A DNA stretch of 64,000 nt, from NCBI GenBank assembly GCA_964632485.1, contig CAZWDO010000007.1, positions 1 through 64,000 on the forward strand, given 5' to 3'. Positions 1,528 to 12,695 of this stretch are shown piece after piece (positions within the stretch are counted from its first letter, which is position 1; the number at the start of each line of letters is the position of its first letter). The position numbers and the translations under genes are program-made. The DNA is from an uncultured bacterium (lineage in GTDB: Bacteria; JAGOEH01). Under the pieces are notes generated by a model. The model searched no databases and was not told the origin of the DNA. It saw only the letters and a program-made list of their open reading frames with translations.

Positions 1528-2826
1528 ATGGACGAATTTATTCTAATACTGGCGCCACCGGTATGGACCGGTTTAGCGCCGTTGAATTTAGCTTACTTAT
1601 GCCACCATCTTAAAAAATTAAATATTATGCCGCGAATCTGGGATTTGAACACTCTTTACTACCTTCAATCAGCGGCGCGCCGGCGAAACCGGTGGACGCT
1701 GTTCAATGCCCGGGAAGAAGAAACCTTTATCCGCGAATTTATAATCTGGTTCGAACATCATTGGCCAGATTGGGTAAATAAAATAAATGTGAATCCACCG
1801 ATTGGCATCGGGTTTACTCTATATCAATCCAATCTGCAAACGGCCACAATAATTGCCCGATTTCTGCGTGAGAATTTCAAAGAAATCCCGTTGATTGCCG
1901 GAGGACCCCAAGTCCAATACGAGGAATGGACCCATTCGGTATCAACGAAGATAGCCCCATTTTTCGATAGCTGGGTAGTCGGCGAAGGGGAAGCGGCATT
2001 AAAAGAAATTGTTACGGCGCAAACCCCCGGACGCTATCACCACCCATTAAATAGTATGATGCAAGCGGGATTTCCCGATTTTTCCCATTTTGAACTCAAG
2101 CGGTACGGCAGGCAACGCGCTCTCCCGGTCTCATTTTCCAGGGGCTGTATCCATCGATGTACATTCTGCGCGGAATGTCGATTGTTTCCCTGTTATAAGC
2201 AATACGACCCCGGCGAATTTGTCGAGCGTCTGCAGGAAATGACCCAAACTTACCATTTACACTGGGTCACTTTTTTAGATTCCCTGATTAATGGAGATTT
2301 TGAGGCGCTGGCAATACTCTGCGAAAAAATGATCAATAGGGGCTTAAAACTTCACTGGGACGCCCAACTGGCAATTCGTCCCGACATGCCCATGGAATTA
2401 TTCAGACTCATGAAACGCGCCGGTTGCAACCAGTGTTTTATCGGCCTGGAAACCGCCAGCAACCGTCTGCTTCAGCAGATTCGCAAACCCTATCATTCGG
2501 AAGAAGCCGCTCAATTTCTGGAAAATATGAAAAAAAACCAATTATTCGCGGAAATCAGTCTGATTGTCAATTTACCTGGCGAAGAAGAAACAGATTTCCA
2601 TTCTTTGCTCGATTTTTTTGATAAATATCATCCCCTAATCGCTAAAATCGCCCAGATCAATCCGTTTATACCGCTCCCGGGAACTCCATATTATACCAAA
2701 TTTTCACCAGATTCTCAGGATAAAAATCAATCAAAAATTCAACAAATATTAGCAATCGCCGAAAAATATCATATTCCTTATACTAAAAGCTATATACAAA
2801 ACCTAAATTTTGAAGCTTCTCCTTGA
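1528..2826 (+). CDS. B12-binding-domain radical SAM protein
   Basis: N-terminal cobalamin-binding-like region (PLNLAYL...LIAGGP...VVGEGE) and SRGCIHRCTFC (CxxxCxxC), FIGLET, PLPGTP. Confidence 0.88.
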   Translation: MDEFILILAPPVWTGLAPLNLAYLCHHLKKLNIMPRIWDLNTLYYLQSAARRRNRWTLFNAREEETFIREFIIWFEHHWPDWVNKINVNPPIGIGFTLYQSNLQTATIIARFLRENFKEIPLIAGGPQVQYEEWTHSVSTKIAPFFDSWVVGEGEAALKEIVTAQTPGRYHHPLNSMMQAGFPDFSHFELKRYGRQRALPVSFSRGCIHRCTFCAECRLFPCYKQYDPGEFVERLQEMTQTYHLHWVTFLDSLINGDFEALAILCEKMINRGLKLHWDAQLAIRPDMPMELFRLMKRAGCNQCFIGLETASNRLLQQIRKPYHSEEAAQFLENMKKNQLFAEISLIVNLPGEEETDFHSLLDFFDKYHPLIAKIAQINPFIPLPGTPYYTKFSPDSQDKNQSKIQQILAIAEKYHIPYTKSYIQNLNFEASP

Positions 2827-2917
2827 AAAAAAAACTGCCCATTCATTTTTAGCTTGACAATTTTTACTTTTTTTTATTAATTAGATATAAAGGACCCATC
2901 AAACCGGATGGTGGGAG

Positions 2918-4510
2918 ATGAGCAATCAAAAAAGCAAACCCGAACGTTTTTCAGAGGAAGAATATATGTCTATCAAGAGCCGAATAACCGATTTTTTAAG
3001 CCGTGTGAGCAAAATTTTGGGTGGCGGAGGGGAAAAAGCCATCCAGAAGCAGCTATCGATGGGGAAGTTGACCGCTCGTCAGCGGATTGAAGTGATTTTA
3101 GATCAAGGGTCGTTCCAGGAATATGATCTTTTTGTTGAACATAAGTGCCAGGATTTTGAGATGGAGAAGAAGACGCTGGCCGCCGATGGCGTCATAACCG
3201 GTATCGGCATGGTACACCAGCGGCCCGTGGCGATTTTCGCCCAGGATTTTACGGTGGCCGGCGGTTCGCTGGGTCTGATGCATGCCCGGAAAATTACCAA
3301 GGTCATGGATCATGCCATGCGTTTGGGGATGCCGTTGATCGGTATTAACGATTCGGGCGGCGCGCGGATCCAGGAAGGCGTCAATTCCCTGGCCGGATAT
3401 GGCGAAATTTTCTATCGCAATACCCTGGCTTCGGGCGTTGTCCCTCAATTATCGGTCATCCTCGGCCCATGCGCCGGCGGCGCGGTCTATTCACCGGCGC
3501 TGACCGATTTTGTCTTTGTGGTCAACAATATATCTAAAATGTTCATCACGGGCCCGGAAGTCATTAAAACCGTTCTCGGTGAGGAAATCTCTATGGAGGA
3601 ATTGGGCGGCGCCCGGGTGCATACCGAAATCACCGGCAACGCTCACTTTTACGCGGAAAATGAACAGGAATGCTTTGAACAGATTAAAAAACTATTATCG
3701 TACTTACCGGCCAACAACCGGGAAAAACCGCCTTTAATTGCGCCCAGAGGCCCCAAAACCAAACTGGAAATTGAACACATTGTTCCCCCTCAGGCGAACA
3801 AACCCTATGATATGCGCCATATCATTCAGTGCCTCTGCGATGATTCGGAATTTTTCGAAGTTCAAGACCTATGGGCAGCCAATATAGTCATCGGGTTTGC
3901 CCGGCTGCACGGCCAAACGATCGGAATTATCGGCAATCAGCCGTTAGTCCTGGCCGGAGTCCTTGATGTGGATTCCGCGGACAAAGCCGCGCGCTTTATC
4001 CGGTTTTGCGACGCATTCAGCATCCCGCTACTGACGTTAGTGGACCTGCCGGGGTATCTGCCGGGAATCGACCAGGAACATGCCGGAGTTATCCGCCATG
4101 GAGCAAAAGTCCTTTATGCCTATAGTGAAGCCACGGTGCCCAAAATTACAGTTATCCTGCGTAAAGCGTATGGGGGGGGATATATTGCCATGTGTTCCCG
4201 CCACCTGGGCGCGGATTTCGTTTTCGCCTGGCCGACGGCGGAAATTGCCGTTATGGGTCCCGAGGGAGCCGCCAATATTATCTTCCGATCAGAGATCACT
4301 TCAGCCCCCAATCCCCAGGAAATGCGCCAGCAAAAGGTAAAGGAATATACCGAGAAATTCGCAAATCCCTATGTAGCCGCCGCCAATGGGTATGTCGATT
4401 CGATTATCAAACCCGAAGAGACTCGCGCCACGCTGATTCAAACCCTGGCCATCGCCGCGAATAAAACCGTAACCCCCGAATACAAAAAACATGGAATTCC
4501 ACCGGTGTAA
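2918..4510 (+). CDS. acyl-CoA carboxylase carboxyltransferase subunit (PccB / methylmalonyl-CoA decarboxylase alpha family)
   Basis: QDFTVAGGSLG, NDSGGARIQEG, GPCAGGAVYSPALTD, RKAYGG, AEIAVMGPEGA and C-terminal KKHGIPP. Confidence 0.95.
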   Translation: MSNQKSKPERFSEEEYMSIKSRITDFLSRVSKILGGGGEKAIQKQLSMGKLTARQRIEVILDQGSFQEYDLFVEHKCQDFEMEKKTLAADGVITGIGMVHQRPVAIFAQDFTVAGGSLGLMHARKITKVMDHAMRLGMPLIGINDSGGARIQEGVNSLAGYGEIFYRNTLASGVVPQLSVILGPCAGGAVYSPALTDFVFVVNNISKMFITGPEVIKTVLGEEISMEELGGARVHTEITGNAHFYAENEQECFEQIKKLLSYLPANNREKPPLIAPRGPKTKLEIEHIVPPQANKPYDMRHIIQCLCDDSEFFEVQDLWAANIVIGFARLHGQTIGIIGNQPLVLAGVLDVDSADKAARFIRFCDAFSIPLLTLVDLPGYLPGIDQEHAGVIRHGAKVLYAYSEATVPKITVILRKAYGGGYIAMCSRHLGADFVFAWPTAEIAVMGPEGAANIIFRSEITSAPNPQEMRQQKVKEYTEKFANPYVAAANGYVDSIIKPEETRATLIQTLAIAANKTVTPEYKKHGIPPV

Positions 4511-4818
4511 TGACAATGAATACTAAATTAAATATCGATGACACACTTTACGAAACCCGTTTGACCTCCAAATATGAAAACCGAAGACTCTACTATCCCC
4601 ATAATCCTCATCATATTAAGGCGGTCATTGCGGGAGTTGTCCGGGAGATTCCCGTTAAAATCGGACAAAAAATCCAACCCCATACGACGTTATTGATCCT
4701 GGAAGCGATGAAAATGCTGAATCCAATTCAATCTGAAGTGGGCGGCACGGTCAAAGCCATCCATGTGAAAACCGATCAGCAGGTGCCCCGCAATCAACTG
4801 CTCATTGAACTGGAATAA
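4510..4818 (+). CDS. biotin carboxyl carrier protein
   Basis: EAMKM biotinylation motif; start overlaps the upstream stop (TAATG). Confidence 0.92.
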   Translation: MTMNTKLNIDDTLYETRLTSKYENRRLYYPHNPHHIKAVIAGVVREIPVKIGQKIQPHTTLLILEAMKMLNPIQSEVGGTVKAIHVKTDQQVPRNQLLIELE

Positions 4819-6494
4819 TGGAATTCATCTGGGAAACTCACGGAATCCATGCCGGTACCGGTAAAGACCATGTCAAACATGGTATTGATCAACTGGAATC
4901 GGTCGCCGAAGAAGCAATTCGACGCCATTACCCCGGCATCACTTTTATCATCCATTCTCCCCGGCTTACACGGGTTCGCTACCAATCGGAACGAAATACT
5001 GACATAAAATTTATCCGGGGCGATCGGGCTTTTTTTGAATACCCTCAACGCATCCGTCAACTTAAAGAACAGTATCAAAATAAAATTGAAATCCGCTTTG
5101 GTATAGAACTGGAATGGATGGGCGGGGATCTGGGCCTGCCCTGGAACCGTTCAAAAATATTTCAATGCCATAAAGCCGATTTTGTAATCGGTTCCGTTCA
5201 TTTTTCCCGTGAAGGCCTCCCGTATGACGGAACTGCCGAAGAGGCCCAGGAATTATTGAGACTTCGCGGGAGCGTGGAGAACTACTGGCTGGGATATTTG
5301 GAGGAAATGATCGAAATGATCGATCAGTACCGGGAATTAATCCATGTAGTGGGTCATCTGGACCTGCCTAAACTGCATATTCCCATGCCAGCCGAGATGA
5401 TCGACCTGGATCGATCAGGGCATATCCTGGCACGACGTTTGCGCATCCTGCTTGAAATGATCAGCGAATCTAAACTGGCCCTGGACGTCAATTTGGCTGG
5501 TATTCGCAAGGGTTGCGGTCTCTATCCCCACCCGCAGATACTCAAACGCGCGGAACAGTTGGGAATTCCCTTCACGATTGGCACAGATGCCCATTCCCTG
5601 GAAGATTTGGGCGCCCATTACACCCAAGGTATTGAAGCCATTCAAAATGCAGGATATGCCTATTATATTAGTTTTTCGCGCGGAATTGCCGAAAAACGCC
5701 CTTTACAAGAAAATCCGGAAATCCAACACCCCTTTCACCTCCTGAATCTGGCAGTCGGAATTTTAGGACAACGGACAACAAAAACTGAAGGGTTAGTCAT
5801 GCCCCGTTTTGCGTTTGGCGGTTCCTTCCGCTGCCTTCTTCCCATTTTTCCAACTGCCGTTTCCCTGGGTGAATTCCATGCCATCCGGGTCCGACGTCAG
5901 GATCAAAAACTGATCACTATCAGCGATCAGACCCCGCCACCCACCTCTGAACCGGGCCGATATCTATTTTCCCACCATCAGGACTTGCCCGGAACCATGG
6001 CTATCCTCTTCAATACCCTCGCTTCTGAAGAAATTAATGTCCAAACCGCTTACCTGCAATCCCTGCATGACGGGACAGCTACCGCCTATTTGACCGTCAA
6101 TGCCGGGGATGAAGAAATTCAAAATGCGATTGAATTTATCAAAGGGACTGCCGGCGAACGATTCATTGAACTATCGATTCAAATACGCGATACAATCCCC
6201 CCCTTTTATCATCAGGGGAACTATCTGCTGGAAATTGACGGGGTGGACCTGCCTATCCCCATCTCCCCCCAAATGATCATTACAATTCATAACAACCGCC
6301 CGGGTACGCTGCTGATTCTATTAAGCGCCCTGGCGTCTCAACATATCAATATTCATGATCTGCAATTGGGAGAACGAGGTTCAAAAGGCTATGCGGTTCT
6401 GGGCGTTAACGGCCCGGAAAATACTATTAAAATATTACTCTCCCAATTAGGTAACCAGTTTTTCGAGGCGTCCCTGATTGAAGTCGGCGCCTGA
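4818..6494 (+). CDS. PHP-family (HisJ-like) phosphoesterase fused to two ACT domains
   Basis: PHP motifs GIELEW, DFVIGSVHF, GHLDLPK, GTDAH; C-terminal ACT-like units HQDLPGT...INVQ and HNNRPGT...INIH; TAATG coupling to the BCCP gene. Confidence 0.8.
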   Translation: MEFIWETHGIHAGTGKDHVKHGIDQLESVAEEAIRRHYPGITFIIHSPRLTRVRYQSERNTDIKFIRGDRAFFEYPQRIRQLKEQYQNKIEIRFGIELEWMGGDLGLPWNRSKIFQCHKADFVIGSVHFSREGLPYDGTAEEAQELLRLRGSVENYWLGYLEEMIEMIDQYRELIHVVGHLDLPKLHIPMPAEMIDLDRSGHILARRLRILLEMISESKLALDVNLAGIRKGCGLYPHPQILKRAEQLGIPFTIGTDAHSLEDLGAHYTQGIEAIQNAGYAYYISFSRGIAEKRPLQENPEIQHPFHLLNLAVGILGQRTTKTEGLVMPRFAFGGSFRCLLPIFPTAVSLGEFHAIRVRRQDQKLITISDQTPPPTSEPGRYLFSHHQDLPGTMAILFNTLASEEINVQTAYLQSLHDGTATAYLTVNAGDEEIQNAIEFIKGTAGERFIELSIQIRDTIPPFYHQGNYLLEIDGVDLPIPISPQMIITIHNNRPGTLLILLSALASQHINIHDLQLGERGSKGYAVLGVNGPENTIKILLSQLGNQFFEASLIEVGA

Positions 6495-6501
6495 CAAGAT
6501 G

Positions 6502-9500
6502 TTATTTCAACAACAGCATCTTAGATGTAAGCGCTCCATTTTTGCCCGATAACCGGCAAAAATAGATGCCCGACGGATAAGCATAACCGATCTCCGGCCA
6601 GCTAAAATGATGCCAGCCCTCAGATACCAGGGGAAAATCGCGTTTTTCCAATTCCTGGCCCAGAATATTATAAATACTGATCTCCAAACCCTGCGATTGC
6701 GGGAGATAATAGCTGATTACCGTCCTGGGATTGAAAGGATTGGGATAATTCAGCAGCATCAACGACGGATTTTTTAAAACTGATTCAGCAGTGGAAATCA
6801 AGCTAGCCGGAGACCATATCGCGCTCATTTTTTCACTCTCGTTGTAATTCAAGTCGAACGCCGTAACAGCATAATAAACCGTATCACCGGAATCGGCCCG
6901 CCATTCATCATAATAAAAGGTATCCAGAACGGTCTCGGATAGGATATGCCAACCGCTATCCGGGTCGGTTTTTTTATAAACAGTATAGCATTTCCAATCT
7001 AAGTCCGAGCATCTATTCCAGGTCAATTGCAAAATTTCAGAAACGACATTGTGAATATTCAGAACAGCCGGCGCCTGGGGAGGCAGTGTGTCGGCCTGGG
7101 ATCGGGTGGTAATCAATTGATTATCAACGGTTGTCATATTCCCCCACACATCCTGCGCCATGATCGTTAATTTGTAGGTATGATTGGCCGGCAGGGAAGG
7201 AATCAGCCTCCTATGATTTTAAATGAGATCAATATCACTGACAGTATAGGGGTAATTCTCCGTCAGATCGGAATAATCGACATACGCCGTGGTTAATTCG
7301 TCCGTTTGGAGATAGACCTGGATAAAGTCAAGGCCATCGACCAAGGCTATAGAATCGATAACGGGAGGCGCCTGATCGCTCGAAGACCCGGTTTGAAATT
7401 CCCCTTCGACTATATCACTCCAACGTCCATCAACATCACTGACCGAGTTTTGAAAATGATAAGCCCGGTTCGATTGCAATCCCGAAAAGATAATATAATG
7501 CTGGATACTTCGCAAAAGGTTATCCTGGGTCTGTAACAGATTAGCGGCGTCATAAAGAGAAACCAGAGTCAGCGTCGGTTTGTTGGTGGACCCATGAAGT
7601 ATAGCCATCTCACTGGACAGGGAGGATATCGTAGGAGGTTTCAATAACCGGGGTGTGAGTTGATCGGGCTGTTGAAGGGTGGTACTCCGCAAAATACGGT
7701 CATCGAAAACCCCTTGATTTTGATTGATATCGCTGCAGACAATCGTGAAAAAATACTCCTGGCTGTTTTCAAGATCATAAATTGTAATCAGATGCTCGGT
7801 GGCATAGTCATCCGACGACTGGATAGAGGGGTTATCGAGGCTCTTACCCCAGGCGACTGAGGCCATCGCGGGTTCGTTGGTCTTGAAATAGAGAGAAATA
7901 TAATGATCGCCCCGTTCATAGATTGACGGCCCTTCAGTAATCACCGGCGCTTGCGTATCGGAGCTGGTATTGGTAGTAAATGAGGGCCAGCCGTCCAGAG
8001 GCAGGCGCCACAAACCGGTTACGGGAATTTTTTTACTCAGGGAAAAAGCCTGTGGATAGCGGAGTTTATTCCCGGCGATATCGGTCACTTCGAGGAAATA
8101 CTCATATTCAACCCCCGGATTAAGATCGGAAACAATCAGACGATGACTTTTCGAAAACTCTTTTGCAGAAACACTATTGGTGATCGCCGGCTGATTCTTA
8201 TCCCAATAGTAGAAAGCCGGAAGGGATTCCTCATCCGTCAGAAATTCAATAAAGAACTGCCGATCGTAAACTTGAAGACGAGGACCGGCTGTAATAAGCG
8301 GAGGGATTGTATCGCTGGCAGCCAGAGTCATAAAGCTGTCGATGTATCCAGCCGCTTGTAAGCCGGCGGCATCGATGGCAGTGATCCGATAGTAATATTT
8401 TGTGTTGGAAAGCAGATTATTCAGCCGCAGCTCATGTTTAAGTTTACTCTCGGAAACTGAATAACAGCGCCAGTTACTGGTATCGGCGCCCGGCGCCAAT
8501 ACGACATCGGCCCGAGCTGGACGTTGGGTCTGCCAGACCAGGCGAATCCCCTGGGAGGTGGGATTGGACGAGAGTTGATAAATTAAACGTAAATCCTCTA
8601 CCGGCAAACTGTCGCCCAGGGTCCGAAACCGATTTTTAATAGTTATAAATGCGTTATTCGCAGGATTCGCCAAAAACCAGCGATAATAATAAAGTGTATT
8701 GGGGGTCAGCCCGGAAAGAACATACCGATGCTCCAATGTCGGCTGAGTGATTTCCCGCATCAGGATGCACAGCGTATCGGTTCCAAAGTAGATACGGGAA
8801 ACGGCGGGACGATCCGTTTGGATCAATAAAACGGCTTCCTGAGCCGTTATGTTCGCGACTAAAGGACCTTCAACAATTGACGGCGCGTATTCCGCCTCCT
8901 CTGAGCGGGTGTGGAAGCTGAATGGAGCGCCAGTGAAGGTTTTTCCCTGATTATCGAATAAGATAATCTGGCCGGTATATGCCGTAGAATCAATCAGGGA
9001 ATCGAGCATTACCCGGTGGTTATAGCTGAAATTTGAATCAATTTTAGTGAATTGGGTTGGACCGGCCGTTACGTTCCAGAAAATCTGAGCGGTCGTTTTT
9101 TTGGAGCTCTGCCATTCGATGAGCGCCTCATGAACGCCGATATAGGGTACAACAGGCCCGGAAACGAATGCGGGAGAAGTAGTATCGGCTGATGCCGCTG
9201 TCGCCACTGAATCTCTCAAATATACGCGCTGATTATGATAACGGTCGCTAAGCGCAACTGTGATGCGGTAAAAGGTAGCAGGAGTCAATCCGCGCAAAAC
9301 CCATTGAAAATGAGTTTGCCAGGTCGTATCCTGGAAAAACAGGGAATCGAGCGCATGATAAGGTTGAATCATGACCGTTACCGCTGACGGTTCATTGGTT
9401 TCCCATTCAAGCTGTAAAAAATCGGCGCCCCTGTCAATGATACGAATCGGGGAAACGAGCGCCGGAGCCACTGTATCGGCCACAGTTTTAAACCCATAAT

Positions 9501-12500
9501 TCAAGCGGGAGTAATTCCCCCGCCAATCAGCGGCGGCAACCGACACTACTTTGATTACGCCCGATTCCCAAAGTTCGCCATGGATAACCCGCAGCATATA
9601 ACCCTGCGCAGTTCGCTGGTATTCCAATGAATGGCGAATGCCATCCACCCATACCTGAGTCATCGCCGTATCAATACCGCTGAGGGAATCTTCAACTCTT
9701 AGAACCACCTGACCATTTAACGGCGCATTAATCTGGTTCGCTTCAGGCCAAAGAGGAGTAATGACAGGACCCACGGTATCAGAAGATTCACCCTGCAGCT
9801 CCACTCTCAATGACCGAATGGTATCCGCCGGGCCCAGATTTAAAGGCGTTGCATGCTTGTAAGGAAGATATCCCTCTTTTTCAACGGTCAGGGAATAGCT
9901 ACCTGAAGCCAGACGAGTAAACCGGAATATGCCCAGCGTATCGCTTATTGCCTGTATCAAGAGAGTATCACGGGAAAGTAGCGCCCGGCAGTTAACTAAA
10001 AACTCACCACTAATATCATCAACCGCTTGGCCCATCACCACGCTCCGATTATACAGATGAGGTTTGGGCAGGGGGAAAATTACAATCGAATCGGCGATCT
10101 GATTTTTAGTGACTGAAATGGGAATGGCCGTCCGGATATCGGATACACTATCATACCAGGTCTCAAAATAATTTTCGGACCCGCTGGCAGCTACCCGGTA
10201 TGTTCCGGCAGGCAAATTTAAACGAAAATTCCCACTATTGTCTGTCCGCGCTTCAAACCGGTCACTCTGCGCATTGATCGCGGTAACCGTTGTTGTAAGG
10301 GGATATGACGCCCATGAGTAGGGAAACCGATAAACCACGCGGCCGCGGATCTCTCCGGTTTGTTCAAGCGCGGATGACAAACGCTGCCAGCGGGTAAAAT
10401 CAAAATAGAAATCGGGGCGGGGTCCCGCAACGATCAACGAGTCTATCACCTGATCATTATCTCTATCCAATTTACTCAGATAATCGGACCCTTCGAAATT
10501 TTGATTATTATTGCTGTCGATAATTGCCTTGAAATAGTAAGCCCCGGGCGAGACGATCTCCAGCGAATAACGGTTATCGTCAGCAGCTTTGGAAAACTGT
10601 TTAAAAGGCGATAACAGACTGGAATCCAGACTACACCCCACCCAGGCCGGGGGTGAAAAGCTCCAGGGAGATTGGATCATCCCCCGGAGTGTGAATAACG
10701 GAAGACGCATTTCAATGTCGATCTGGGTCAGACTCTCGTCGCGTCGAATGATAGTCAACGTATCGCGCGCGCCATCCCGATTGGCATCATAATAAAATCC
10801 AGGCTCGATTGAGTCCGGAAAATGATTACCGGTGGTATCAAGGTAAGCAAAAACGATGTATTGCCCCGGATTCAAACCTTCAAACCGAAATGAGTAGTCA
10901 CTGCCAGTAAGTTGTTGTTTGAAAAAATCGATAAAATTATACAAAACGACATAAACCGGCCAGGAAGTCGTCCGGTTCAGACGAACGGTTCCCTGCGCGG
11001 AAGCGCCCCCAACGGTGGTTGAATCCACCTTTAAGCGAATATTGATCCCACGCAGGGTGTCTCCGGCGGATACCATCAGTTCCCGACATTGTTCCTGGTT
11101 GGACAACTCATAAAAACAGTTTTCAACTCGTAGCGAATCAGTGTCCGGATCATTCCCGGAATACAAACCGGCAAAGACCTGATACCCCCCCGGCCGGAGT
11201 GAATCCATGCGATAACTGCCATCGTGGTTGGAAACGGGGACCCAACGGTTGCGGGTTGAATCAGTTGTATGCTCCGCCATTACAGCCAGAAACCCGTCCT
11301 GGCCGGTAAGATTTTGTACGACGCCTTCGATACAGCCATAGGGAGTGGCAGCCGGCGGCACAATTCCATGATAAATATTGATATTAGTAACCGTCTGTCC
11401 ATCGGCCAGATGGATAATCACGCAGTTAGTGTCACTGTAATCGCGTTGATAGCAGAATTCCGGTTCATTCTCATCGATCTCTTTATCGGCGTCCAGATCG
11501 GACCAACTGAAAACTTCATAGTTGCCGGCAGGCAGGCTGTCCAGCAGATAAAAACCGGCAGAACCGGGACGGGCTCCTTTCAAAAGGCCTTCCCACCCGG
11601 GACACTCCAGGCATTCGGCTGCAACATAGAGAGGAAATTGGGCGGTGGAATCCCAGAAAACGCGCCCGCGAATGCTGGAAGTCCCTACAGGTTTTAAATA
11701 ATGTTGAAATTTAAAACTAATATCAGCATGATTCGGCTCCGCTTCACTGATGGAAACCTCACTGCACTGATTATTCGCAGAATCCTGCATATAACACGCC
11801 AGAAATTCGCTGGTATCATGAATCTGGTTATTGTTTTCATCAATAAAAGCATCCACAATATAGATACCCGTCAACAAACTGTCAAATTGATAATAATGAT
11901 TCGCATCGAGATTTCTGCTCTGTTGCGAAGGACCCCAAAGCCGGACAATAATAGGGCCGTTGCGATCGGTTTCGTTGCGAACATAGCCACTGATGGAGCC
12001 AATCGGTTCGCCCGGAGGCGCAAACTCCTTAAATTCCAGATTGATGGCTGTAACATGCTGATTCTCGGCCAGGGGGATCACTGTGCACCCGGTATCCTCC
12101 ACATTTTGCTGATAACACACATACCAGTCATTGGGTCCGGCGTTATGGTTGCGGTCGCGATCGAGTACTGCCTCAACGATAAACGCGTCATAGGTCAAAC
12201 TGTCCAGGCGATAAGCGCCACCCGTTTCGGGCAGCTCGATCTGAGCGCCTAAAAAATTATCGGATGTTCGCACTACCCGAACCAGAATCGGCGCACTTTC
12301 CTGAGCGCTGTTGGTAACTGTACCGCTGATCGACGCATTTCCCTTTTGCGCGGGAGCGGATTGGACCAGAGTGATCGCCACCCCCGGAATAGTGCTGTTT
12401 TCGGCGCTGAGCGTCATTTGTCTGTGTGATGAATCCCCAGGAATATAGCTATTTGCCGTATCCACCGTCAGCGCGCGCGCCAGCAGAGTTCCCAACATCC

Positions 12501-12609
12501 CGCTCTGGTTATCAATCACGCCCGGGACGCTTTCTGCCCGGGATGTCAGATTAAACACGACTACCATACCCATCCAAAGCCAAAATAAATAAAAAATAAA
12601 AGGTCTCAT
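6502..12609 (-). pseudogene. ~2000-aa secreted multidomain surface protein (Ig-like repeats, FN3-like repeats, T9SS-type CTD) interrupted by one in-frame TAA at 7219-7221
   Basis: ORFs 7219..12675 and 6502..7161 are in the same frame and read ...SDIDLI*NHRRLIPSLPANHTYKLTIMAQDVWGN... through an FN3-like repeat. Likely start ATG 12609 after AAGGAG. C-terminal NYPNPFNPRT...SGIYFCRL...KMLLLK. The stop could be an assembly error. Confidence 0.8.
10400..12342 (-). repeat. six ~110-aa Ig-like protein repeats with Dx[DN]x[DN]-type loops; the first four carry a C-x9-C pair
   Basis: Each unit starts S-I-S/R-G-x-V-like and has a G-x-Y-x-V/F strand followed by an Asp/Asn-rich loop. Cys pairs: CYQQNVEDTGC, CYMQDSANNQC, CYQRDYSDTNC, CFYELSNQEQC. 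Boundaries are approximate. Confidence 0.7.
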
Positions 12610-12695
12610 ACATATCTCCTTGCTAAAAAAGGCCAGTCTATATAACCAATTTAACACAAATGAGCGAAAAATCAAGGAAAAACATCCGATTTTAT

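Follow-up and report, generated by a model that had tools for sequence, protein, structure and literature searches.

A HisJ-type PHP domain joined to two ACT domains: a candidate amino-acid-gated phosphoserine phosphatase

In genome-based reconstructions of amino-acid biosynthesis, phosphoserine phosphatase is among the steps that most often remain unaccounted for, and its substrate resembles histidinol phosphate in that both are 2-amino-alkyl phosphates. In the accessible parts of the GapMind 2026 report (PMC13759103), 16 of 208 prototrophs still lack a serB, a DUF1015 protein named SerBK is described as able to replace SerB, and redundancy with HisB-N led to the prediction of an IMPase-like phosphoserine phosphatase that then received genetic support. 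Histidinol-phosphatase-like enzymes of two folds other than PHP have been mistaken for phosphoserine phosphatases or have turned out to be such enzymes, as far as the available sections of PMC10804674, which deals with HAD-type enzymes only, and of PMC13759103 describe. Here we report a gene at 4818-6494 (+ strand) of a 64,000-nucleotide stretch of DNA (the window; contig CAZWDO010000007.1 of assembly GCA_964632485.1) from an uncultured bacterium of the GTDB lineage JAGOEH01, the product of which joins a PHP domain of the HisJ family to two ACT domains (hereafter the fusion). We propose, at about even odds (a probability of roughly 0.5), that it is an amino-acid-gated, probably serine-gated, phosphoserine phosphatase of the PHP fold, for which we infer both the substrate and the effector.

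The gene is a single open reading frame of 558 amino acids plus stop, with the ATG at 4818 as its sole in-frame start. It encodes a PHP phosphatase, a linker domain, ACT1 and ACT2 in that order, and full-length homologues are 55-65% identical. Residues 1-295 (4818-5702) form the HisJ-family PHP domain, as indicated by Pfam, NCBIfam, conservation and a Foldseek match to 2yxo. They are followed on the same strand by a conserved linker domain of about 85 residues (296-379; 5703-5954), which matches no Pfam family and is modelled as a long helix and then short strands. Next come ACT1 (380-457; 5955-6188), of beta-alpha-beta-beta-alpha-beta topology, and a connector with a modelled beta-hairpin (458-484; 6189-6269), which contains YLLEIDGVDLPIPIS and aligns to the segment ahead of ACT in both E. 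coli SerA and the type I phosphoglycerate dehydrogenase (PGDH) model. ACT2 (485-555; 6270-6482) completes the protein. Pfam matches above the gathering score cover PHP (20-225), PHP_C (242-271) and ACT or ACT_AHAS_ss (487-544); for ACT1, the Pfam ACT matches (388-428) are sub-threshold only, and the unit is otherwise recognised by its conservation and modelled topology. In NCBIfam, the fusion belongs to the hisJ_fam subfamily (TIGR01856; 126.4 bits against a cut-off of 90.2), and its last ~70 residues weakly match both PGDH models. The solved relatives found by sequence for the N-terminal half are the histidinol phosphatases 2yxo, 3dcp and 4gc3, and a sequence profile search matched E. coli SerA to residues 441-538.

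The whole protein was modelled with AlphaFold from a 25-sequence alignment, giving a predicted local distance difference test score (pLDDT) of 85.5 and a predicted template modelling score of 0.86, with weak regions only at residues 1-20 and 51-68. Residues 296-558 were modelled separately from 30 sequences (pLDDT 91.8). Both models contain two beta-alpha-beta-beta-alpha-beta units, at 380-457 and 485-555, connected by the beta-hairpin. The top Foldseek match of the whole model is the T. thermophilus histidinol phosphatase 2yxo (template modelling score 0.85 on the target). Foldseek also aligns ACT2 with PGDH ACT domains (E. coli 2p9e_D and 3k5p; 82 columns, root-mean-square deviation 1.6-2.4 Å, 26-28% identity) and lists M. 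avium SerB2. For the C-terminal model, the structure search found the regulatory domains of aspartate kinase (3l76; Z 14.6, 168 residues, 3.7 Å) and IlvA (9d2s; Z 14.1, 152 residues, 3.0 Å), together with residues 316-529, comprising ASB and ACT, of M. tuberculosis PGDH (1ygy; Z 12.5, 166 residues, 3.0 Å). The last of these spans residues 2-262 of the C-terminal model and starts in the linker, only its first and last aligned residues being known. Generic ACT clusters (scores 0.75-0.76) were the only matches of the C-terminal half in the ESM Atlas. As modelled, the C-terminal half is a double ACT fold of the PF01842 clan, in which ACT1 is sub-threshold in sequence and has the ACT topology in both models, and the arrangement of the pair resembles that of the tandem ACT-like modules in IlvA and aspartate kinase. 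The original prediction, made from the sequence alone, had read the protein as a HisJ-like PHP domain followed by two ACT units and was to be abandoned if the C-terminus did not model as ACT. Pfam, NCBIfam, AlphaFold and the structure matches confirm this reading, with two ACT-topology units modelled and tandem-ACT matches at Z 14.1-14.6.

The PHP domain retains a complete candidate active site. We take H8, H11, D17/H21, H46, E97, H128, H180, D257 and H259 to be its metal ligands, according to the roles such positions have in the PHP literature. All are invariant in 25 family members from several phyla except D17, which is at least 90% conserved. The full set is kept in the fusion, with an ambiguous pairing of the N-terminal histidines, where the alignment is ambiguous and the pLDDT low. 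In an alignment of nine fusions with 24 standalone HisJ-family proteins, the fusions keep all ten columns that are invariant across the set (H46, P48, E97, H128, D137, Y160, H180, D182, D257 and H259). The HGIH motif, earlier singled out as a replacement of the usual HxH, is real but not peculiar to the fusion, since the HxxH form (HGGH or HGCH) occurs in 18 of the 24 standalone proteins. By eye, a three-residue insertion follows HGIHAG in the fusion relative to its standalone relatives, at a place where the automatic alignment is ambiguous. Many fusion-conserved positions are unlike those of standalone HisJ (among them R54, K64, R67, W109, R111, K113 and Y136), and I45 stands where 21 of the 24 standalone proteins have Glu. 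An acidic-to-basic switch of the pocket (I45, T256 and G234 in the fusion against Glu, Asp and Glu in standalone proteins) was also considered and dropped as evidence, because Thr or Ser likewise precedes the catalytic Asp in the verified enzymes of L. lactis, Thermus and Listeria. Our results demonstrate that the fusion contains a HisJ-type PHP barrel with a complete candidate catalytic set and that a conserved linker domain connects this barrel to two ACT domains. Judged by the conserved residues, the metal-dependent phosphomonoesterase chemistry of the PHP barrel is well supported for it.

In E. coli SerA, His344, Asn346 and Asn364 contact serine at its carboxyl and amino groups, and the hydroxyl is read via water and main-chain atoms only; the counterparts in M. 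tuberculosis PGDH are Tyr461, Asp463 and Asn481' (available parts of Grant 2018, PMC6300728). In a profile alignment with SerA residues 295-398, H491, N493 and N511 of ACT2 align with the three SerA ligands, so that His, Asn and Asn stand at the SerA positions. The equivalents in ACT1, aligned by eye between the two near-identical ACT motifs and in agreement with conservation, are H387, D389 and N407, and the Asp at the second position is like Asp463 reported for M. tuberculosis PGDH. All six residues are invariant or at least 90% conserved in the 25- and 30-member alignments. The original prediction had placed the serine-binding triad in the second unit, which is correct for ACT2 in sequence order, whereas the unit that it listed second (HQDLPGT...) carries HxD. 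These residues lend good support to an ACT pair that would bind an alpha-amino acid and act as a regulatory pair. Because SerA-type His, Asn (or Asp) and Asn are present in both units, the most likely effector would be L-serine or another small amino acid. As the C-terminal half matches the IlvA and aspartate kinase modules, the ligand sites would be expected at the intramolecular ACT1/ACT2 interface. The earlier idea of an amino-acid-regulated phosphatase is supported.

Evidence for the substrate comes from the serine pathway of genomes that carry the fusion. The window genome (98% complete) has SerC, a SerA of 316 amino acids without an ACT domain, and DUF1015/SerBK; no SerB was found in it (best match 24 bits). 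Among 36 carrier genomes examined, SerB above the cut-off was found in none and DUF1015/SerBK in 34. That genomes with the fusion might lack serB had been put forward as a check, and it holds for all 36 carriers, but it is uninformative alone and we rejected it as evidence, because SerB is rare across the class, with just 12 of the 301 Bacteroidia sampled above the cut-off, and DUF1015/SerBK is present in most carriers. The two that lack DUF1015 are closely related to each other. The Urechidicola arrangement is serC-serA-yggS, against serC-serA-DUF1015-yggS in Namhaeicola. A clean presence or absence of DUF1015 is seen between two Flavobacteriaceae loci (L090 of G019 and L091 of G020), in which the serC-serA-(DUF1015)-yggS cluster is otherwise identical. 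In Spirochaetota, two DUF1015 open reading frames (L114:4144-6351 and L113:4995-6512) are 505-735 amino acids long by crude calls, and their N-terminal region has no Pfam match. Neither adjoins serA or serC, and the genes around them encode a class-III aminotransferase, an FGGY kinase, a GGDEF protein and MFS transporters.

To relate the fusion to the phosphoserine step, we sampled 201 Flavobacteriaceae genomes evenly, all of them at least 90% complete. DUF1015 occurs in 139, and eight of these have the fusion. Of the 62 DUF1015-negative genomes, 61 were identified, and the subgroup counts rest on these; all 61 have SerC. SerB above the cut-off (~410 amino acids) occurs in 15 of them and a ~630-amino-acid protein weakly matching the SerB model in 18, and the fusion is found in neither group. 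The remaining 28, with neither DUF1015 nor a SerB-like gene, are gap genomes, and ten of them encode the fusion. Full-length fusions are present in 18 of the 201 genomes: 10/28 gap genomes against 8/172 elsewhere, and 0/33 with a SerB-like gene. The Fisher p of 1e-5 (3e-5 minus the two seed genomes) overstates the significance, because related genomes are not independent. All Flavobacteriaceae copies fall into a single clade in the tree of fusion proteins, and the DUF1015 state changes 4-5 times within it, at least two of the changes being forced by well-supported branches; lineages with the fusion have thus lost or gained DUF1015 more than once.

Two further observations concern the DUF1015-negative Flavobacteriaceae. 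Ten of the 18 gap genomes without the fusion are at most 2.2 Mb in size, with SerC present and DUF1015, SerB-like genes and the fusion absent. The weak SerB-model match belongs to open reading frames of 628-662 amino acids in 18 of the 61 genomes. One of them was domain-scanned (a 630-amino-acid protein, L112:1991-3883, G382); it has an N-terminal SerB-like HAD domain, PGDH and a C-terminal ACT domain, and looks like a SerB-SerA fusion.

We propose the following model for the PHP-ACT fusion. An alpha-amino acid would bind at the ACT1/ACT2 interface, and binding would shift the ACT pair together with the linker domain and so alter phosphatase activity. On the comparative genomics described above, the substrate would most likely be O-phospho-L-serine. 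The protein would then be a non-HAD phosphoserine phosphatase carrying a serine sensor for a pathway whose SerA has no ACT domain. It is tempting to speculate that, beside SerBK, a serine-inhibited phosphatase could help to set the direction of the pathway, towards serine synthesis or serine use. In its full form, the model describes a PHP-fold phosphoserine phosphatase with a tandem-ACT serine sensor that fills the SerB gap in some Flavobacteriaceae and serves as a serine-controlled direction valve beside SerBK in the window genome, Marinifilaceae, Spirochaetota and Ignavibacteriota. We regard this full form as tentative and place it somewhat short of even odds.

Several results weigh against a phosphoserine phosphatase under serine control. 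With DUF1015 in the window genome and in 34/36 carriers, no phosphoserine phosphatase is missing there, and DUF1015 lies within ~2.5 kb of serC where coordinates were compared, directly beside serA in Namhaeicola. The fusion itself never adjoins serA or serC in the 76 loci, and then 18 Flavobacteriaceae loci, used for gene-neighbour clustering. Seven of the nine Spirochaetota carriers have no match to type-1 SerC, other SerC types not having been searched. Since the Flavobacteriaceae fusions form a single clade, their enrichment in gap genomes may partly reflect shared ancestry. Moreover, 18 of the 28 gap genomes do not have the fusion, so another phosphoserine phosphatase must exist, and it could equally serve the carriers. 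The SerA-type triad, as described in the available parts of the SerA paper, contacts groups common to all amino acids, so its presence does not prove specificity for serine. Finally, every residue invariant in standalone HisJ is kept, which is compatible with activity on histidinol phosphate.

This last point leads to the reading suggested by the names in databases, that the fusion is a histidinol-phosphate phosphatase tuned by histidine or another amino acid through its ACT pair. Its hisJ_fam score (126 bits against 90), its closest solved structures, which are histidinol phosphatases, and the retention of all columns invariant in standalone HisJ speak for this, yet at 88.4 bits the fusion falls below the cut-off of 133 of the HisJ equivalog NF005996. 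The window genome encodes a separate 278-amino-acid HisJ that passes the same cut-off (142.2 bits), and its only HisB-N-like match is a GmhB fusion; there the PHP-ACT protein is neither the sole candidate for the step nor in a his context. A further HisJ-family gene occurs in 25/36 carriers and a bifunctional HisB above the cut-off in 24/36, with at least one of the two in 31/36. The proposed check, whether genomes with the fusion lack hisB or hisJ, comes out negative for most of them. The five carriers in which no standalone HisJ and no HisB phosphatase domain was found (two Ignavibacteriota, two Spirochaetota and one Flavobacteriaceae metagenome-assembled genome) fit the histidinol reading; at no locus with annotated neighbours, however, does the fusion lie in a his operon, its ACT ligand residues are SerA-type, and this reading would not account for its enrichment where DUF1015 and SerB are absent. 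Given another candidate in the window genome and in 31/36 carriers, a role as histidinol phosphatase is unlikely. Redundancy of this kind was also the basis on which GapMind 2026 arrived at its IMPase-like phosphoserine phosphatase. Of the two enzymes originally offered, then, the enrichment in gap genomes favours the non-SerB phosphoserine phosphatase, and the redundancy speaks against the regulated histidinol phosphatase.

A more serious competitor, though still on balance doubtful, is an amino-acid-gated phosphatase with a different phosphoester as its substrate, such as a phospho-amino acid other than phosphoserine or a phosphorylated intermediate from outside serine and histidine synthesis. 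The lineage-specific neighbourhoods, which give no pathway clue, the coexistence with DUF1015/SerBK in most carriers, the coupling of the window gene to a carboxyltransferase/biotin-carrier pair and the fusion-specific PHP positions (R54, K64, R67, W109, R111, K113, Y136 and I45), which suggest a changed pocket, would all suit such an enzyme. No result indicates a specific alternative substrate, however; the co-occurrence in Flavobacteriaceae points to the phosphoserine step, and the ACT units have SerA-type residues. It is far less probable that the PHP domain is non-enzymatic and the protein a ligand-binding sensor or regulator. This idea draws on residues 1-20, where the model has low confidence, the fusion differs by three residues from standalone relatives and the alignment is ambiguous, but it is at odds with metal-ligand positions that are invariant or nearly so in 25 members from several phyla and with 50-65% identity along the whole length, active-site motifs included. 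The phosphoserine phosphatase under amino-acid control remains our preferred reading.

To analyze the distribution of the family, we used a word-indexed sequence search, which gave 616 matches. The best 120 of them are all 556-610 amino acids long and 55-65% identical to the fusion, with at least 98% query coverage; where names are given among these 120, they are 'histidinol-phosphatase HisJ family protein', 'histidinol-phosphatase' and, once, 'hypothetical protein'. Across the family, full-length identity ranges from 50 to 65%, active-site motifs included. A library clustered at 50% identity holds three full-length representatives (55%, 41% and 41% identity), and its shorter matches are probably fragments. 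A scan of species genomes found a relative of the fusion in at least 157; the 80 loci kept of these 157 belong to Marinifilaceae, Spirochaetota, Ignavibacteriota/Melioribacteraceae, Flavobacteriaceae and Paludibacter. The phylum of the window has three genomes in the set used, and the other two are without the fusion, a sample too small for inference. A literature search, which left most subscription journals outside its reach, found no description of a phosphatase combining PHP and ACT domains. The main text of GapMind 2026 (PMC13759103) contains neither 'PHP' nor any carrier taxon, and the accessible part of its supplement on serB covers only Bacteroides thetaiotaomicron, Lysobacter, Xanthomonas and Synechocystis, with no PHP-family protein. 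The architecture thus appears to be uncharacterised, as had been suspected, with databases naming it only as 'HisJ family'; it newly combines two known kinds of module, a PHP phosphatase and ACT regulation.

The neighbours of the fusion differ among lineages. In Marinifilaceae it lies beside a 166-183-amino-acid protein of no known family (16 loci), in Flavobacteriaceae beside RecG and an M1 peptidase, and in Spirochaetota beside a peptidyl-prolyl isomerase followed by a TrpB-like pyridoxal-phosphate enzyme. The TrpB-like enzyme (TIGR01415, function unknown) is encoded on the same strand downstream of the Spirochaetota fusions, for example at L014:10693-12129, usually after a cyclophilin-FKBP isomerase, and its cluster comprises 13 loci. 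No serA, serC or his gene was found among the annotated neighbours in the 76 and 18 loci. Because the neighbours are lineage-specific and linkage to serA, serC or his genes is absent, gene context gives no functional clue, and we rejected a conserved neighbourhood as one.

In the window, the fusion gene is the last of four + strand genes, after those for a B12-binding radical SAM protein, an mmdA-like carboxyltransferase and a 102-amino-acid biotin carrier. The TAA of the biotin-carrier gene overlaps the ATG of the fusion gene in TAATG (4816-4820, + strand), which suggests translational coupling of the two. This arrangement with the carboxyltransferase and the biotin carrier is absent from the other 75 loci examined and specific to the window genome. 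Within the tight + strand cluster (1528-4818) that ends in the fusion gene, the radical SAM protein weakly resembles PhpK-type methyltransferases, the mmdA-like carboxyltransferase scores 797 bits where the mmdA cut-off is 999, and none of the adjoining genes encodes a membrane decarboxylase subunit. On the - strand at 6502-12675, a 219-amino-acid protein with a C-terminal sorting domain of the type IX secretion system (T9SS) adjoins an 1818-amino-acid protein with CarboxypepD_reg, fn3 and purple-acid-phosphatase N-terminal repeats; the two are probably a secreted or cell-surface pair. T9SS-type sorting signals occur in the window genome, the phylum of which has three genomes in the GTDB set used.

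If the preferred reading is true, the annotation of a family labelled histidinol phosphatase would be corrected in at least 157 species genomes, and fewer false auxotrophies would be predicted in Flavobacteriaceae and other groups. The fusion would be a second case in which a phosphoserine phosphatase independently acquired two ACT domains, and it would have implications for the control of the thermodynamically puzzling DUF1015/SerBK pathway.

Compared with known systems, the N-terminal half is closest to the PHP histidinol phosphatases (HisJ/HisK; 2yxo, Listeria 3dcp and L. lactis 4gc3/4gyf), with which it shares the fold and the conserved active-site positions. The GHLDLPK motif is common to the fusion and the Thermus enzyme (sequence E-value 1e-16). 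The fusion differs from these enzymes in being only ~25% identical and in its additional regulatory half of 260 residues. That half resembles the ACT regulatory domain of E. coli SerA (type II PGDH), the three serine ligands of which are conserved in ACT2, and the ASB and ACT module of M. tuberculosis PGDH (type I). In the fusion, however, the ACT domains are joined to a phosphatase and not to a dehydrogenase, and because the two ACT units share one chain, the ligand sites would lie within a subunit and not between subunits.

The combination of a phosphatase with two ACT domains is also found in the ACT-ACT-HAD phosphoserine phosphatases, namely mycobacterial SerB2 and the ~410-amino-acid SerB of Bacteroidia, where the open reading frames matching the SerB model are of this length against 219 model positions. 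The M. avium SerB2 structure has serine at an ACT domain and provides a precedent for a phosphoserine phosphatase with two such domains. In contrast to SerB2, the catalytic domain of the fusion is an unrelated PHP barrel, not HAD, and the domain order is reversed. No match to TIGR00338 or a HAD model was found among the NCBIfam and Pfam results for the fusion, which, having no HAD domain, would be only a functional analogue of SerB and not a member of its family. DUF1015/SerBK and the IMPase-like phosphoserine phosphatase, as presented in the accessible parts of GapMind 2026 (PMC13759103), address the same pathway gap with folds that differ from that of the fusion; as a candidate replacement for SerB, the fusion family mostly coexists with DUF1015. 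The IMPase-like case is nonetheless similar in one respect, since there too, in the parts of that report available, a paralogue from a histidinol-phosphatase family occurs in genomes that already have HisB-N.

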